Shown here in pieces: positions 40,547 through 47,175 of a DNA stretch of 64,000 nucleotides; position 1 is the first letter of the stretch, and the number at the start of each line of letters is the position of its first letter. Position numbers and translations under genes: made by a program. The DNA lies in the NCBI RefSeq assembly GCF_013248865.1, contig NZ_JABNNF010000018.1; one strand, 5' to 3'. Below the pieces are notes generated by a model. It searched no databases. It saw nothing but the letters and a program-made list of their open reading frames with translations, and was not told the origin of the DNA. The DNA is from Corallococcus exiguus. Lineage in GTDB: Bacteria; Myxococcota; Myxococcia; Myxococcales; Myxococcaceae.

Positions 40547-41425
40547 TCAGCCCTGCGCGGAGCGGGGCTTGCGCGTGGACTTCTTCGTCGTCGCGATCTC
40601 CAGCGACAGGTCCATGGCCCGCGCCGAGTGCGTCAGCGCGCCCATCGACACGAAGTCCACGCCCAGCTTCGCCAGCCGGGGCAGCCGGTCCAACGTGACG
40701 CCGCCCGACACTTCGATGGGCACGCGGCTCGCCGTCAGCTTCACCGCTTCGCGGATCTGCGCGTCGTCCATGTTGTCCAACATGATGACGTCCGCGCCCG
40801 CGGCGATGGCCTCCTCCAGCTGCTTGAAGTTGGTGACCTCCACTTCAATCTTCACCAGCCGGGGACCGTTCAGCTTCGCGCGGCGCACCGCTTCGGTGAT
40901 GTCGCCACCTACCGCCGCGATGTGGTTGTCCTTGATGAGGATGCCGTCGAAGAGGCCGAAGCGGTGGTTGGACGCACCGCCCATGCGCACCGCGTGCTTC
41001 GCGAGGCCTCGCATGCCCGGCGGCGTCTTGCGCGTGTCCAGCACCCGCAGCTTCGAGCCTCGCACGGAGGTCATCGCCTGCTGGGCCAGCGTCGCGATGC
41101 CGGCGGCACGCTGCACCAGGTTGAGCGCCGTGCGCTCCGCGGCCAGCAGCGAACGCAGCTTGCCGTGGACGCGCGCGGCGACCACCTTCGGTTTGATTTC
41201 CTCGCCGTCGCGCTTGAGGACCTCCACCTCCACCTCCGCGTCCACCATGTGGAAGACGCGGACGAAGGCGTCCAGGCCGGCGACGATCATCTGCTCCTTC
41301 GCGACCAGCTCACCGCTGCCCTCCGCTTCGGCGGGGACCACCGCCAGCGAGGTGACGTCCCCCGCAGCACCCAGGTCCTCGTCGAGGGACAGCGCGATGA
41401 GCCGATCGAGATAATCCTGCTGCAC
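40547..41425 (-). CDS. nadC: Nicotinate-nucleotide pyrophosphorylase (quinolinate PRTase)
   Basis: 'RVLDTRKTPPGMRGLAKHAVRMGGASNHRFGLFDGILIKDNHI', 'IEVEVTNFKQLEEA'. Confidence 0.85.
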   Translation of the reverse strand: MQQDYLDRLIALSLDEDLGAAGDVTSLAVVPAEAEGSGELVAKEQMIVAGLDAFVRVFHMVDAEVEVEVLKRDGEEIKPKVVAARVHGKLRSLLAAERTALNLVQRAAGIATLAQQAMTSVRGSKLRVLDTRKTPPGMRGLAKHAVRMGGASNHRFGLFDGILIKDNHIAAVGGDITEAVRRAKLNGPRLVKIEVEVTNFKQLEEAIAAGADVIMLDNMDDAQIREAVKLTASRVPIEVSGGVTLDRLPRLAKLGVDFVSMGALTHSARAMDLSLEIATTKKSTRKPRSAQG

Positions 41426-41434
41426 TTCCGCCTC

Positions 41435-44400
41435 CTACCGGCGCGCCTTGCGAGCCGGCTTGCCCCGAGTGGTCTTCTTCGCCGCGGCCTTCTTCGCGGC
41501 GGTCTTCTTCCCCGCCGCCTTCTTCGCCGAAGCCTTCTTCGCAGGAGCCTTCTTCACCGCCGCCTTCTTCGCGGCCGTCTTCTTGCCCGCCGCCTTCTTC
41601 GCGGAAGCCTTCTTCGCAGGGGCCTTCTTCGCGGCGGACTTCTTCCCCGCCGCCTTCTTCGCGGAGGCCTTCTTCGCAGGGGCCTTCTTCACCGCCGCCT
41701 TCTTCGCGGCCGTCTTCTTGCCCGCCGCCTTCTTCGCGGAAGCCTTCTTCGCGGGGGCCTTCTTCGTCGGAGCCTTCTTCACCGGCTTCGCCGAACCCTC
41801 CGGCGCCTCGCGGGCGTCGCCGCCCTCCTTGGCCCGGTCGAACTCGCGCATCGCGTCGTCCACGAGGCCCATGCTCATGTACGCGACGCCCAGGTCGTGG
41901 TGGTCCGCCGGTGACAGCCCTTCCTTGGTGCCCTCGCGCAGCTTTTTGAGGGCCTCCTCCACCACCGGATCCGCAGCCTGGGGCGCCTGCGAAGCCTCTT
42001 CGGCTTCAATCTCGCCCTTCAGCTCCTGGCCCAGGTTCACCGCTTCGTCCTTCGGTTCCTGCGGCTCGGTGGCCACCTTCACCTGGGCGCTCTCGGGCGC
42101 GGGGGACTCGGACGCTTCAGGGGCTTCGGACTCGGTGCTGCCCGGCAACGGCGACGGCGTCTCGGACATGGGGGGCTCCGGGGCGATGCGCTGGAGGTGA
42201 TCCTGCAGCTTGACCGTGCGCTCCTGGAGCTCCGCCACCCGGGCCTTGTCCTTCTCCACCACGTCCGGCGGAGCACGGGCCACGAAGTTCGGGTTGTCCA
42301 GCTTGCGCTGCAAACCGGTGAGTTCCTGCTCGGAGCGGACGATCTCCTTCTTCAGGCGATCGCGCTCCGCGTCCAGGTCCACCAGGCCCGCCAGGGGCAC
42401 GTAGATTTCCAGGTTGCCGCTCACGAACGCCGCCGCCTGCGGAGGCTTGGCGCCCGGGGGGCCCACCACCACTTCGGACAGGCCCGCGAGAGGCATCAGG
42501 TACGCGCGCCAACGCTCCAACAGCTCGCGCGTCGTCGCGTCCGGGCTCTGCACCACCGCCTTCACCTTGGCGGACGGCGGCAGGTTGCTCTCACCGCGCA
42601 GCGTGCGCAGGCCCTCGATGGCCGCGATGACCGGCGCCATCTCGCCTTCCGCGGCCGCGTCCACCCACGCCGTCTCCGGCGCCGGGTAGGCCGCGATGCA
42701 GATGCTCTCCGTGGGCCGGGACATCGGCAGCTTCTGCCAGATCTCCTCGGTGATGAACGGCATGAACGGGTGCATCAGGCGCAGGATGCGGTCCAGGCAC
42801 GTCACCAGCACCGCGCGCGTGGTGTCCTTGGCCTCCGCGTCGTCGCCGTAGAGCGAGCCCTTCGCCAACTCGATGTACCAGTCGCAGAACTCCGCCCACA
42901 GGAACTGGTACAGCGTGGACGCGGCCTCCGCGAAGCCGAACGCCTCCAGCGACGCGCGCGTCTCCTCCGTGGCCTTCTGCAGGCGGGAGAGGATCCACCG
43001 GTCCGCCAGCGTCAGCTTGCGGCCCTCCAGCGGCGTCTTGTCCAGGCTGAAGTCGCCCATGTTCATCAGGGCGAAGCGGCTGGCGTTCCACAGCTTGTTG
43101 CAGAACGCCTTGTAGCCACCCAGGCGGTCCATCGACAGCTTGATGTCACGGCCCTGCTGCGTGAGCGACGCCAGCGTGAAGCGCAGCGCGTCCGCGCCGT
43201 GCGCGGGCATGCCCTGGGGGAAGCGGTTGCGCAGCGACGGCTGCAGCGACTCCGCCTTCGCGCCGAGGATGACGTCCAGGGGATCGATGACGTTCCCCTT
43301 CGTCTTGGACATCTTCTCGCCCTTCTCGTCGCGCACCATCGCGTGCAGGTACACGGTGCGGAAGGGCACGTCGTTCATGAAGTGCAGGCCCATCATCATC
43401 ATCCGGGCGACCCAGAAGAAGATGATGTCGTGGCCCGTCTCCATCACGGACGTCGGGTAGAAGGTCTGCAGGTCCGCCGTCTGCTTCGGCCAGCCCAGCG
43501 TGGAGAACGGCCACAGCGCGGACGAGAACCAGGTGTCCAGCACGTCCGGATCCTGCGTCAGCTCCTTGCCGCCGCACTTGGGGCAGGACTCCGGCGCCGT
43601 GCGCGACACGATGACGTCCGCCGTGTCCTTCGAGCGCTCTTCCGCCGGGGTGCACGCCGCGCAGTACCACGCGGGAATCTGGTGGCCCCACCACAGCTGG
43701 CGGCTCACGCACCAGTCGTGGATGTTGTTCATCCAGTGGAAGTACGTGTTCGTCCACGACTCGGGGACGAACTTCGTGCGGCCCTCCTCCACGGCCTGGA
43801 TGGCCGGCTTCGCCAGCGGTTCGATCTTGATGAACCACTGCGGCGACAGGCGCGGCTCCACCACCGTGGTGCAGCGCTGGCAGGTGCCCACGTTCAGCTT
43901 GTGCGGCTCCTCCTTCTCCAGCAGGCCCAGCTCCGTCAGGTCCGCCAGCACCTGCGTGCGCGCCTCCCGGCTCTCCAGGCCCGCGTACTTGCCGGTGTCC
44001 TTCGTCATCCGCGCCGCTTCGTCCAGGATGGACAGCATCGGCAGCTTGTGGCGCAGGCCCGTCTGGTAGTCGTTGAAATCGTGCGCGGGCGTGACCTTCA
44101 CCACGCCGGTGCCGAACTCCATGTTCACCAGCTCGCCGTCCGCGATGACCGGAATCTCACGGTCGGTGAGCGGCAGCGCCACGCTCTTGCCGATGAGGTC
44201 CTGGTAGCGCGGATCCTCCGGATGCACGGCGACGGCCGTGTCGCCCAGCAGCGTCTCCGGGCGCGTCGTCGCCACGGTGAGGAAGCGCTCCGTGCCCTTC
44301 ACCGGGTAGCGGATGTGCCAGAGCGAGCCGTTCTTCTCCTCGTGCTCCACTTCCAGGTCGGAGAGGGCCGTGCGGCAGGACGGGCACCAGTTGATCAGCT

Positions 44401-44929
44401 TCTGGGCCCGGTACATCAGGCCCTCTTCGTACAGCCGGACGAACACCTCGCGCACCGCGGCCGAGGACTGCTCGTCCATGGTGAAGCGCTCGCGGCTCCA
44501 GTCCAGGGAGGCGCCCAGGTAGCGGTGCTGCTCGCCGATGCGCGCGCCGAACTTGCCCTTCCACGTCCAGACGCGCTCGAGGAACGCCTCGCGGCCCAGG
44601 TCGTGGCGGCTCTTGCCCTCCGTCTTCTTGAGCTCCTTCTCCACCACCATCTGCGTGGCGATGCCCGCGTGGTCCGTGCCGGGCAGCCAGAGCGCGTTGA
44701 AGCCGCTCATCCGCTTCCAGCGCGTGAGGATGTCCTGGATGGTCGCGGTGAGCGCGTGGCCGATGTGCAGGCTGCCCGTCACGTTGGGCGGCGGCAGCAC
44801 GATGCTGAACGGCGGCTTGGAGGAAGGGGCTTCGGCGCGGAAGTAGTCGCGCTCCAGCCAGTGGTTGTACCACCGCGCCTCCACTTCGGAGGGCTCGTAG
44901 GCCTTGGACAGTTCAGTCGTGTCAGTCAT
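41435..44929 (-). CDS. valS: Valyl-tRNA synthetase with a ~260-aa C-terminal extension (acidic linker, TPR-like motif, Lys/Ala repeat tail)
   Basis: '[14 protein letters not shown]', '[12 protein letters not shown]', canonical coiled coil. Then '[32 protein letters not shown]...' for about 100 aa. Confidence 0.9.
41450..41795 (-). repeat. Tandem ~90-bp DNA repeats encoding the KAAKKA tail
   Basis: 'ccgccttcttcgc(g/c)ga(a/g)gccttcttcgcagg(a/g)gccttcttc' repeated. Confidence 0.6.
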
Positions 44930-44982: not shown

Positions 44983-46245
44983 TCAATGCTGGGTCTCGCG
45001 GTCCTTGATGAGCCGCTCCAGCTCTTCCCGGATGATGGCCTCCGCCAGCTGCGGTACGACCTCCCAGGCAATCTTCTCGATGACCTCGCGGGACGCCTTC
45101 GACAGCGCCTCGCGCAGCAGCGCCTCGCCGCCATCCGCGGCCGGACGGGCGCGCGCGGGAGGAGTCGCCGGCGAGGGGCCGCCGATATCCAGGGAGATCT
45201 CCTCCGCGCCGCTGGGCTCGGGCAGCGAGTCCTCGATGCGGATGCTCCCCGTGCGGGCCTGCGCGGCGGGCGGGGCGGCCGGTGCACCCAGCCCGAACGG
45301 ATCCCGGGCACGGGCGGCCGGAGGCACCGCGGCGGGCGGGGGCGCGGACGGCAGCGGCGCGGCGCCCGGAGGACGCGGGAAGCCGCCCGGGATGTTCGGG
45401 GCGCCAGGGCCCGGAGGACGCGCGGCCATGCCCGGAGGCGGCGCACCCGGAGGACGCGCGCCCGGAGGCACGGCACCCGGCGGAGGACGCGCCCCCGGCG
45501 GCATGGCACCCGGAGGCGGCGCACCCGGAGGACGCGCACCCATGCCCGGAGGCGGCGCACCCGGCGGAGGACGTGCACCCGGCGGCATGGCGCCCGGAGG
45601 CGGCGCACCCGGAGGACGCGCGCCCGGAGGAACAGCGCCAGGCAGCGGACGCGCCGCACCCGGAGGAGGAGGCACACCGGCGCCCGGAGGACGCGCGCCC
45701 GGAGGCACGGCACCCGGCGGAGGACGCGCACCCGGCGGCACGGCGCCCGGAGGCGGCGCACCCGCGGGACGCGCACCCGGCGGCACGGCGGCGGCGGGCG
45801 GCGCGCTGGCCGGAGCGCTCGGGGCGGAGGTCTGGGGCAGAATGCGCGTCGCGGCGGACGCGGGCATCGTGTTGGACTTCTGGCCCACCAGCGCCTTCAC
45901 CTTGTCGAGGAGGATCTGGCTCTCGAAGGGCTTGGCGATGTGGTCATCCGCCCGGGCGGCCTTCGCGCGGTTCTCGTCGAACGCCTCGAAGGTGCCGGCC
46001 AGGAGCAGCACCGGGATGGCCTGCGTGGAGGGGTCGCTCTTGAGCGCCTCGCAGACCTCGTAGCCGCTCTTGCCCGGCATCATCACGTCGGCGAGCACCA
46101 CGTCCGGACGCAGCTCGCGCGCGCGGGAGATGGCGTCCAGCCCGTTGTCCACCGCGGTCACCTGGAAGTCTTCCGTCGCGAAGATCATCCCGATCACCTT
46201 GCGGATGGTGAGCGAGTCGTCGGCGATCAGTAGATTCTTGGGCAT
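44983..46245 (-). CDS. romR: Response regulator with N-terminal receiver, long PPGARPPGA-type Pro-rich repeat region and an acidic C-terminal domain (RomR-like)
   Basis: 'NLLIADDSLTIRKVIGMIF...VVLADVMMPGKSGYEV', then about 25 'PPGARP' repeats, then 'EEISLDIGG...IEKIAWEVVPQLAE'. Assignment from memory of Myxococcus xanthus RomR architecture. Confidence 0.6.
   Translation of the reverse strand: MPKNLLIADDSLTIRKVIGMIFATEDFQVTAVDNGLDAISRARELRPDVVLADVMMPGKSGYEVCEALKSDPSTQAIPVLLLAGTFEAFDENRAKAARADDHIAKPFESQILLDKVKALVGQKSNTMPASAATRILPQTSAPSAPASAPPAAAVPPGARPAGAPPPGAVPPGARPPPGAVPPGARPPGAGVPPPPGAARPLPGAVPPGARPPGAPPPGAMPPGARPPPGAPPPGMGARPPGAPPPGAMPPGARPPPGAVPPGARPPGAPPPGMAARPPGPGAPNIPGGFPRPPGAAPLPSAPPPAAVPPAARARDPFGLGAPAAPPAAQARTGSIRIEDSLPEPSGAEEISLDIGGPSPATPPARARPAADGGEALLREALSKASREVIEKIAWEVVPQLAEAIIREELERLIKDRETQH
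45290..45790 (-). repeat. Imperfect tandem ~27-36-bp DNA repeats encoding the Pro-rich region
   Basis: 'ggcgcacccggaggacgcgc(a/g)cccggcgg' recurs. Confidence 0.6.
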
Positions 46246-46362
46246 CGGCTCCGGCCTCGGGGGGCGCATACCCCCCTGAATTCGTTTGAGATTTCGGGCG
46301 AGCAAGCCTGCCTGCACGCCCTGTGTCAATCGGAGAAGCTTAGGATTCGCGCGTTGGGCCGA

Positions 46363-47175
46363 TCAAGAAAACATGCGCTGCAGGTCCAGTAACATCACCG
46401 GATCCGGCAGCCCCGGCGCCCGGAACGTTCCGGGAAGCTCGGCCGGCTTGAACTTCTGCAGCACACCAAGCACCCGGGTGGCCGCCAGTCCCACGTTCCG
46501 CCCCGCCAGTTCCGTGAGGACGAACAGCTCCTCCGCCTGGGCCGGCGCACCCAGCAGCGCTGGAATCGAACAGATGGGCCACAGCGCCTGCGCGTGGGGA
46601 TAGACGCCCGCCACCGGCCCGCTCTGCACCGGGAGCACGCTGAACGCCTCGCCCCGGGGCACCACCTGGGAGACGCAACCCAGCGGAACGCCGAACAGCA
46701 CCCCCTGGGATTCCAGCACCAGTGCCCGCTCCGGGGGCACGTCCGCATAGTGCACGGGCCGGGGCTCCGGCGGGGTCGCCCGGGGGCCCGCCCGGTGCGG
46801 CAGCGCCTCCACGATGAGCTCCAGGTACAGCCGATCCTTGTGCAGCACCGCGCCCCGGCTCAGCGGCGCCAGCGAGTCCGCCAGGCCCGGAGGCAGCAGG
46901 AAGAACGGATCCCTCGCGACGTCCGCGACCTCCACCACGGCGCGCACCCGCACCGCGAGCGTGGGGCTGACGTCCAGGACCACCACCATGCCCGGCACTT
47001 CCTCAGGCAGGCCGCCGAGCAACGCGGCGAGGTCCTTCACTTCCAGTACGCCGCGCAGACTCGCGCCGCGAGCGCCCGGCATCGCGACCTCGATGACGGA
47101 GGTGGCCTCTACCGCGTAGCGCGTCTCTCCGGCCTCCACCAGCAGGCAGAGCCGCCGTCCGCTTTCAAAGGGCAC
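46363..47175 (-). CDS. Protein with two degenerate CheW-like domains
   Basis: 'RLCLLVEAGETRYAVEATSVIEV...MVVVLDVSPTLAVRVRAVVEV' and 'VLFGVPLGCVSQVV...FVLTELAGRNVGLAATRVLGV'. Confidence 0.45.
   Translation of the reverse strand: MPFESGRRLCLLVEAGETRYAVEATSVIEVAMPGARGASLRGVLEVKDLAALLGGLPEEVPGMVVVLDVSPTLAVRVRAVVEVADVARDPFFLLPPGLADSLAPLSRGAVLHKDRLYLELIVEALPHRAGPRATPPEPRPVHYADVPPERALVLESQGVLFGVPLGCVSQVVPRGEAFSVLPVQSGPVAGVYPHAQALWPICSIPALLGAPAQAEELFVLTELAGRNVGLAATRVLGVLQKFKPAELPGTFRAPGLPDPVMLLDLQRMFS

Follow-up and report, generated by a model that had tools for sequence, protein, structure and literature searches.

A single-TPR unit and a lysine-rich tail on the long valyl-tRNA synthetase of Myxococcales, and their relation to a small downstream gene

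Why should a bacterial valyl-tRNA synthetase (ValRS) end in more than a hundred residues made up largely of lysine and alanine? The question is raised by valS of Corallococcus exiguus, which lies on a 64,000-nucleotide stretch of contig NZ_JABNNF010000018.1 that we call the window. An earlier note, made from the letters alone, had read the end of this gene as a coiled coil followed by an acidic S/P/E linker, a motif resembling a tetratricopeptide repeat (TPR) and a K/A tail. This anatomy proved right, with an array of ~105 aa in the tail, and the interval 41435-42250 to which it had been assigned covers the stretch from where the coiled coil ends up to the stop codon. Our results show that the tailed enzyme is the standard, clade-wide long form of ValRS in Myxococcales and no peculiarity of the C. 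exiguus genome. The added part appears to be a small downstream gene that was joined in frame to valS (or the reverse, by fission), and its tail may serve as an arm that binds RNA.

Architecture and distribution of the long ValRS

The valS gene is one uninterrupted open reading frame (ORF) from ATG to TAG at 41435..44929 (-), with the stop codon at 41435-41437. Its product of 1164 aa is identical to RefSeq WP_172816442.1, 'valine--tRNA ligase [Corallococcus exiguus]'. Residues 1-915 (42185..44929 (-)) form the canonical core, with the catalytic, editing and anticodon-binding domains and a C-terminal coiled coil, as delimited by Pfam and by an AlphaFold2 whole-protein model that was built with 76 aligned orthologues and is confident up to residue ~915. 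Pfam places tRNA-synt_1, the Rossmann-fold catalytic domain, at residues 20-599 (1.3e-150) and Anticodon_1 at 643-792, the signal of the editing (CP1) domain comes from tRNA-synt_1_2, and the HIGH and KMSKT motifs are readable in the translation ('SLHIGHAL', 'EKMSKTKGN'). The coiled-coil tRNA-binding arm that ends the canonical part (Val_tRNA-synt_C, PF10458, E 1.2e-18) occupies residues 851-915 (42185..42379 (-)), with predicted helices at 852-878 and 888-915. The protein scores above the cut-offs of the class Ia ValRS equivalog models (TIGR00422, 1135 bits vs 612; NF004349, 1253 vs 704). It also passes the curated long-form equivalog model NF011492 (PRK14900) with 1821.4 bits vs 1783, a match in which residues 1-1110 correspond to profile positions 3-1022 of 1044 and which thus reaches into the extension.

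The extension, residues 916-1164, comprises ~250 residues and consists of an acidic linker, a conserved helical unit with one TPR, and a polycationic tail. Residues 916-997 are acidic and S/P/E-rich (19 D+E vs 5 K+R). The linker proper, residues 922-947 (42089..42166 (-)), differs in length and sequence between genera and is predicted to be disordered from its composition and its low model confidence; pLDDT (AlphaFold2's per-residue confidence) is <50 for residues 920-971 and again for 1044-1164. Between these stretches lies a conserved module of ~88 aa, residues 948-1035 (41825..42088 (-)), recognised by alignment, the AlphaFold2 model, profile matches and Foldseek. It is made up of an 'AQVKVA' motif (948-953), a conserved helix (964-975), a capping helix (988-1000) and one TPR with helices at 1007-1019 and 1023-1035 (41825-41911 (-)). 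Its consensus reads A-x-V-K-[VI]-A-P ... V-D-L-x-x-E-L-K-x-E-L ... D-P-Q-V ..., with 19 invariant columns and 10 more that are >=90% conserved in an alignment of 43 diverse extensions. The whole-protein model predicts helices at 966-979, 988-1000, 1007-1019 and 1023-1035, with pLDDT 76-85 over residues 1000-1040. Modelling the module by itself gave a consistent picture, with values of 82-94 in its TPR part.

Several lines of evidence bear on the TPR-like motif, which lies at residues 1009-1030. Run against the PDB, the profile of the module finds consensus TPR proteins (E 2.8e-7) and is aligned there to NLGNAYYKQGDYDEAIEYY, and the region of residues 1007-1035 fits the 34-residue helix-turn-helix consensus with its G8, Y11, A20, F24 and A27. 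As a single sequence the repeat gives a weak Pfam match (TPR_2, 18.4 vs a gathering threshold (GA) of 27). A Foldseek search with the module model returned no match at E <0.001 and only local single-repeat TPR matches, which superpose on single TPR units with a root-mean-square deviation of 0.5-0.7 A. The protein lacks a tandem array of at least three TPRs; it has one repeat and one preceding capping helix, and the module profile matches several stretches each in multi-TPR proteins but one only in ValRS. Judged from profile and predicted structure, the motif is a genuine single repeat with a capping helix. A specific link to the type IV pili formation protein SgmX, and through it to cell polarity, was considered and rejected, since the match to the SgmX model (NF052243, 14 TPRs) reached only 24.7-28.7 bits vs 1800 (E 4e-7), covered only profile positions ~817-925 and reflects generic TPR similarity. 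Other partial matches of the module were to ordinary multi-TPR proteins.

The polycationic K/A(P,S,T,G) tail, residues 1042-1164 (41438..41806 (-)), is marked by its composition, by a pLDDT of 26-32 and by a match to Pfam HC2. Its 123 residues include 45 K, 44 A and 8 Pro, carry a net charge of +48 and end in ...KPARKARR. The bias is well beyond what chance would produce; lysine makes up 37% of the tail vs 5.4% of the core, and the tail is the sole K/A-rich stretch in all six frames of the window. Most of it is a tandem array of 21 consecutive KKxxx pentapeptides encoded by 15-nt units (residues 1051-1155; 41465..41779 (-)), which was delimited by Tandem Repeats Finder (TRF), composition and self-comparison. 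All 42 lysine codons of the array are AAG. The earlier note was correct in seeing tandem DNA repeats here, but the period of ~90 bp that it gave did not hold. Over 41474-41784, TRF finds a period of 15 bp with 20.7 copies and one of 75 bp with 4.1 copies (84% matches). When the tail DNA is compared with itself, identity is 83% for a shift of either 60 or 75 nt and 94% for one of 135 nt, whereas a shift of 90 nt gives no more than 76%. A super-repeat of 25 aa (75 nt) is present four times, one copy being shortened to 20 aa, and the 94% identity at 135 nt points to a recent duplication in the tail. Two ORFs on the opposite strand, 41448-42200 (+) (250 aa, 'FFAAAFF...') and 40628-41914 (+) (428 aa, 'RRLLRG...'), were rejected as genes and are mirror images of the K/A repeat in GC-rich sequence.

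The distribution of the extension was assessed from one genome scan and two protein searches, in which the tails of named genera were read directly. A comparison of ValS lengths across myxobacteria, as the earlier note had proposed, gave 1078-1332 aa for all named Myxococcaceae and Archangiaceae retrieved, namely Corallococcus, Myxococcus, Pyxidicoccus, Citreicoccus, Hyalangium, Stigmatella, Melittangium, Archangium and Aggregicoccus. The enzymes of Anaeromyxobacteraceae (1013-1038 aa) and of many uncultured Myxococcales (1000-1200 aa) have extensions that start neutral or acidic and continue into a K/A/P/R tail, without the TPR module. The non-Myxococcota ValRS whose ends were read (L019-L025, L030, L040, L045, L054, L063) stop at the coiled coil and are 881-959 aa long. 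About 20 ValRS clusters at ~70% identity are tail-less as well (910-934 aa). Hence, the view that the tail is atypical on a bacterial ValRS holds against these non-Myxococcota enzymes, but within the clade the tail is the rule. The extensions of Archangium, Melittangium and Cystobacter lack the TPR module and the junction Met described below and have very acidic D/E blocks instead; one of them, from an Archangium metagenome-assembled genome (L009), has a long PKPTPAPKPKPTPTPKPTP repeat ahead of its K/A tail.

Among strains, the tail is variable in a regular way. In the 90%-identity cluster of Corallococcus it ranges from 121 to 138 aa with 17-21 KK units, mostly in 5-aa steps, so that the repeat-number polymorphism anticipated by the earlier note is indeed present. 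Most of this variation falls in the first half of the tail. In the same cluster the core is constant at 913 aa, and linker plus module measure 114 aa in 14 of the 15 listed members and 120 in the other. Across genera the tail is not alignable; its K/A/P composition, high positive charge and terminal basic pair (mostly RR) are kept. This pattern indicates that the tail evolves fast under a charge constraint.

A literature search found no paper describing the ValRS extension. The long form is thus known at the level of database annotation and is apparently undescribed in the literature. The concern that the tail might be universal in the clade and already described there is therefore borne out as regards its universality, and as regards its description only by the annotation.

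The junction with a small downstream gene

Where did the extension come from? The order CheW - response regulator - valS - nadC is conserved, and within it the small gene occurs in four states. The fused state is found in the window and most relatives. In the split state (L081-L084 and L013/L014; 21 contigs from independent samples) the order in L081-L084 is response regulator, a valS of 918 aa with a TGA stop, an ORF of 136 aa, and nadC. This ORF starts five codons after the valS TGA, behind a GGAGGA Shine-Dalgarno sequence and at the homologous Met, and encodes an acidic N-terminus ('MSERTPEE...'), then a middle part rich in G, M and P, and finally a K/R tail whose last residues are SRR. In the stand-alone state (L086), the place between the response regulator and nadC is taken by the gene of a 342-aa protein that has the complete module and a basic tail, and valS is not there. 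Further free module-plus-tail proteins are P0123 (239 aa) and P0124 (151 aa), whose stand-alone status rests on gene calls only. In the absent state, valS is followed directly by nadC (L087-L089). At every related locus, the gene directly ahead of nadC is either valS or the small tail ORF. A search for homologues by indexed words, run with the linker and motif (132 aa), had given only two short fragments and was uninformative; an exhaustive profile search took its place. One candidate, P0141, seemingly a stand-alone module fused to NadC, was discarded; its contig (L085) is a frameshift-ridden long-read assembly with valS in four pieces.

The small ORF of the split lineage lies at 6693-7160 in L013, 6667-7098 in L014 and 5770-6180 in L081. 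In L014 and L081 it shares the frame of valS, from which one TGA separates it; in L013 a 1-nt difference puts it in the +1 frame. Its product is G/M-rich ('GMGGMGGGMGG', 'GMGMGMGMG') before an Arg-rich tail, and a search of this ORF against family models gave no match.

The junction in the window comprises A916-P-E-P-P920 and M921, the ATG of which is at 42167-42169 (junction 42167..42184 (-)), and was located by its colinearity with L081, L014 and L016. The split loci L081 and L014 read 'TGA ACT GGA GGA ACG ATG', that is, valS stop, Shine-Dalgarno sequence and ORF start, and the fused locus L016 reads 'AAG CCG GAG GGA ACG ATG'. The proteins are colinear codon for codon, with R-I|A-P-E-P-P|M-S-E-T-P in the window, R-I|K-P-E-G-T|M-S-E-K-T-P-E-E in L016 and R-I|stop-T/P-G-G-T|M-S-E-R-T-P-E-E in L081/L014. 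It follows that 'APEPP' would be the former stop plus Shine-Dalgarno spacer, and M921 the former start. Since a separate ORF starts at the homologous Met in sister lineages, we read the extension as a small downstream gene joined in frame to valS, or as the partner of the reverse event, fission.

This reading is further supported by the retention of the Met itself. Of 174 extended ValRS whose junctions are not identical, 138 show a Met no more than 20 residues beyond the coiled coil, and in 102 this Met occupies a single fixed position; the background frequency of Met in the rest of the extension is 1.3-1.4%. Its retention in an otherwise unalignable linker, between families whose cores are ~55% identical, is striking. 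In the Met-less examples listed, the residue at that position, where placeable, is mostly Val or Leu, which would be compatible with GTG and TTG starts. An SD-like (Shine-Dalgarno-like) GGAG lies at 42176-42179, 6 nt upstream of the M921 ATG, and a GGAG was found 6-7 nt upstream in 13 of the 13 loci with a junction Met that were examined as DNA. Of the 29 internal in-frame ATGs of valS, M921 is the sole one with GGAG at -14..-5, and over eight large ORFs 4 of 104 internal ATGs have it there. The nucleotide evidence at the junction is only suggestive, because codon usage alone gives P-E as CCG-GAG about half the time. The junction Met and its GGAG might be either a slowly decaying relic or an internal start that is still used.

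If the latter applies, valS of Myxococcales would be a two-product gene. The GGAG-N6-ATG at codon 921 would drive internal initiation and free a protein of ~244 aa (acidic head, single-TPR unit, polycationic tail), the very protein for which sister lineages have a separate, coupled ORF or a stand-alone gene. Once released, it might serve ValRS in trans, as an adaptor that handles tRNA or links to the ribosome or nucleoid, and would then be a bacterial counterpart of Arc1p. We regard this possibility as doubtful. A promoter and terminator scan of 41300-42600 found no minus-strand promoter inside valS, and the plus-strand 'terminators' that it listed are artefacts of the CTTCTT repeat.

We take the small ORF of split lineages to be coupled to valS in translation. 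The nadC gene (quinolinate phosphoribosyltransferase; 40547..41425 (-); TIGR00078, 1.5e-90; in synteny in L081-L089) has its GTG start 9 nt past the valS TAG, and its Shine-Dalgarno sequence AGGAGG overlaps the stop (41425-41440 (-), TAGGAGGCGGAAGTG). With this overlap and the 9-nt gap, valS and nadC appear to be translationally coupled.

A more trivial explanation of the fused gene would be an assembly or sequencing artefact, in which a frameshift joins valS to a separate downstream ORF, as the earlier note had envisaged. There is indeed a real separate ORF at the same place in the sister lineage, and the L085 long-read contig shows that frameshifts can scramble this locus. Yet the same 1164-aa protein is present in RefSeq, the frame is just as unbroken in 33 cluster members and in >150 orthologues that come from independent genomes, and lysine codon use is uniform through the whole valS coding sequence (100 of 101 are AAG). 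The set of orthologues excludes an artefact for the window, where the fusion is in frame.

What the tail may bind

What, then, could the fused part do? The best explanation that joins these observations is a clade-wide long ValRS, made by in-frame fusion of valS with a small gene (or the source of that gene by fission), in which the tail is a polyanion-binding arm whose ligand is most likely RNA, above all tRNA. We advance this joint explanation tentatively, as having a little less than an even chance of being right in all its parts; its anatomy, distribution and fusion are well shown, whereas binding of tRNA is a proposed role. The fused part would begin with the former stop-plus-Shine-Dalgarno spacer, now read as A-P-E-P-P, and the former start M921. 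The disordered acidic spacer would then give reach and partly neutralise the tail. The three-helix unit with its single TPR is presumably a protein-docking site, because it is the best-conserved part of the extension. Finally, the disordered, rapidly evolving +48 tail of KKxxx pentapeptides would act as a non-specific polyanion-binding arm that captures tRNA and retains it near ValRS.

We favour RNA, and tRNA in particular, for three reasons. The tail sits directly behind the coiled coil that is annotated as a tRNA-binding arm (PF10458), the small ORF is apparently coupled to valS in translation in split lineages, and there is a precedent in the lysine-rich extensions of eukaryotic synthetases, which bind tRNA. 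Residues 1-98 of yeast ValRS bind tRNA with a Kd of ~2 uM (PMC2992532). Arc1p depends on its lysine-rich middle domain to bind tRNA, and this domain lowers the Km (PMC11286949). Moreover, Escherichia coli ValRS can substitute for yeast VAS1 once Arc1p or another tRNA-binding domain has been fused to it (PMC3306390). Both arrangements known from these systems, a lysine-rich terminal extension and a free cofactor with a docking domain and a basic region, have counterparts here, the first in the tail (45 K, +48) and the second in the free TPR plus basic-tail forms.

Several points weigh against this explanation. The earlier note had proposed that the tail binds nucleic acid or polyphosphate and could tether the enzyme to the nucleoid, the ribosome or tRNA; all of these are plausible from composition, which by itself does not tell whether the ligand is tRNA, rRNA, DNA or polyphosphate. 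Tails of this sort bind DNA in Hlp, Ku, AlgP/PhaF and the Anaeromyxobacter CarD analogue. Close relatives do without the extension, as is apparent from the tail-less clusters, two of which have no small ORF nearby; aminoacylation as such therefore does not depend on it. The small gene of L086 does not adjoin valS, which weakens a strictly ValRS-specific role. As to direction, the event may have been fusion or fission; a rough neighbour-joining tree, a near-polytomy without support values, nests the split forms among the fused ones.

An alternative explanation might be that the tail binds chromosomal DNA in the manner of histone H1 or Hc2 and holds ValRS, together with a TPR partner, on the nucleoid, which would serve spatial positioning or add a nucleoid-associated activity. 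This is the main rival. In line with it, the tail matches Pfam HC2 (PF07382) with 44.7 bits vs a gathering threshold of 40 and has weak matches to NCBIfam histone H1-like models. The way its pentapeptides are organised recalls Hc2 (PMC2848022), Ku, Hlp (PMC3553676), AlgP and PhaF (PMC9239181) have K/A/P tails that bind DNA, and a myxobacterial H1-like DNA-binding domain occurs in the Anaeromyxobacter CarD analogue (PMC2919716). These matches are compositional, however, and the curated H1-like models are missed widely (NF038053, 51.6 vs 80; NF038052, 27.6 vs 135). The position of the tail right behind the tRNA-binding arm and the apparent coupling of the small ORF to valS in split lineages also speak against a nucleoid tether. 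To our knowledge, ValRS has no DNA-related activity, which further counts against it. On balance we consider a tether to the nucleoid unlikely, though it deserves more weight than the other alternatives.

The tail might also recruit ValRS to polyphosphate granules, or to other polyanion granules, during starvation and development. AlgP, with a net charge of +55 and KPAA repeats, is found at polyphosphate granules, a localisation that depends on its C-terminal domain (PMC9239181), and the ValRS tail is similarly charged. Charge alone predicts binding to any polyanion, though, and no polyphosphate gene is present in the conserved neighbourhood; we therefore rate this possibility as improbable. 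A functionless low-complexity expansion, in which a K/A tail grew by replication slippage and was tolerated in a GC-rich genome, would be consistent with the fast evolution of the tail, with unit numbers that vary between strains and with its absence from some close relatives. It seems about equally improbable to us. Lysine needs AAG codons in a genome of 68% GC, charge, composition and the terminal basic pair are kept across families with ~55% identical cores, the adjoining TPR module has its 19 invariant columns, and the same protein is maintained as a free gene. Compared to these alternatives, a tRNA-binding arm remains our preferred explanation.

Neighbouring genes and comparison with known systems

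Upstream of valS, the window encodes a response regulator of 448 aa at 44983-46329 (-), with a receiver domain at residues 34-144, ~200 aa of P/G/A repeats ('PPGARPPGA...') and a conserved C-terminal helix, EALLREALSKASREVIEKIAWEVVPQLAEAIIREELERLIKDRE. Together with a CheW-like gene (46363-47175) it is a conserved upstream neighbour of valS, in synteny in L081-L086. Further away, at 36865-39141 (-), lies a gene for a 758-aa bacterial homologue of the eukaryotic Major Vault Protein, with Pfam matches to MVP_shoulder (9e-45), Vault_2 (1e-31), Vault (6e-31), Vault_3 (1e-19) and Vault_4 (4e-6); the NCBIfam models gave no match to this protein.

Both H1-like K/A/P tails on bacterial proteins and lysine-rich domains appended to synthetases are known kinds of structure. 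What is new here is that the add-on is a fused small gene, with free, split and absent versions in relatives, and that its old ribosome-binding site and start codon are kept in the fused gene. The locus would thus offer a clean example of gene fusion by stop-codon loss. Lysine-rich RNA-binding extensions of synthetases have been described as a eukaryotic hallmark and as absent from the bacterial counterparts (PMC2992532); a whole bacterial order carries a lysine-rich extension on its ValRS. The fused, split, stand-alone and absent versions in close relatives provide a natural comparison, and the role of an appended domain becomes testable in the genetically tractable Myxococcus xanthus, with tRNA capture, channelling, localisation and condensate formation as candidates. 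If the tail turned out to be a generic polyanion binder without a phenotype, it would be a well-annotated curiosity.

The NCBI pipeline has captured the long architecture in NF011492 (PRK14900) under the plain name 'valine--tRNA ligase'; it differs from our description in that the model gives the extension no domain or functional description. As for the module, residues 1007-1035 match consensus TPRs and the myxobacterial TPR proteins SgmX, GltE and Tgl in sequence and predicted structure, and an acidic 'D-L-x-x-E-L' helix with a capping helix also recurs ahead of the TPR blocks in multi-TPR proteins. In contrast to those proteins, ValRS has one repeat with its capping helix and no array of three or more.

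The tail resembles the H1-like K/A/P tails of other bacteria (Chlamydia Hc2, the KPAA tails of Pseudomonas AlgP/PhaF, mycobacterial and Streptomyces Hlp, the PAKKA tail of M. smegmatis Ku, and the Anaeromyxobacter CarD analogue) in composition, disorder and charge. Further common features are short units in tandem, with matching tandem repeats in the coding DNA, and a length that differs from strain to strain (PMC2848022). These carriers bind DNA or granules, whereas here the carrier is a tRNA synthetase, and the similarity is compositional and probably convergent. The KPAA tetrapeptide typical of AlgP/PhaF is not the unit of the ValRS tail, which is built of KKxxx pentapeptides with only 8 Pro in 123 residues. 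The adenylate kinase model NF010381 (PRK13808; 335 positions) matches ValRS residues 1020-1155 with its positions 177-312; this implies a K/A-rich C-terminal tail on some bacterial adenylate kinases as well, another housekeeping enzyme.

The lysine-rich appended domains of eukaryotic synthetases (yeast ValRS 1-98, GlnRS, AspRS/LysRS) and Arc1p share with the myxobacterial extension a terminal, lysine-rich, disordered addition to a synthetase or its cofactor, and are known for non-specific RNA binding and a lower Km for tRNA (PMC2992532, PMC11286949). The likeness is one of architecture, homology being neither seen nor examined. The myxobacterial extension differs in being C-terminal and bacterial, in having a TPR unit where those systems have a GST-like or OB fold, and in its perfect pentapeptide array. 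Arc1p is also similar to the free form of the myxobacterial protein, as both are separate polypeptides that combine a protein-docking domain, in our case a presumed one, with a basic region.

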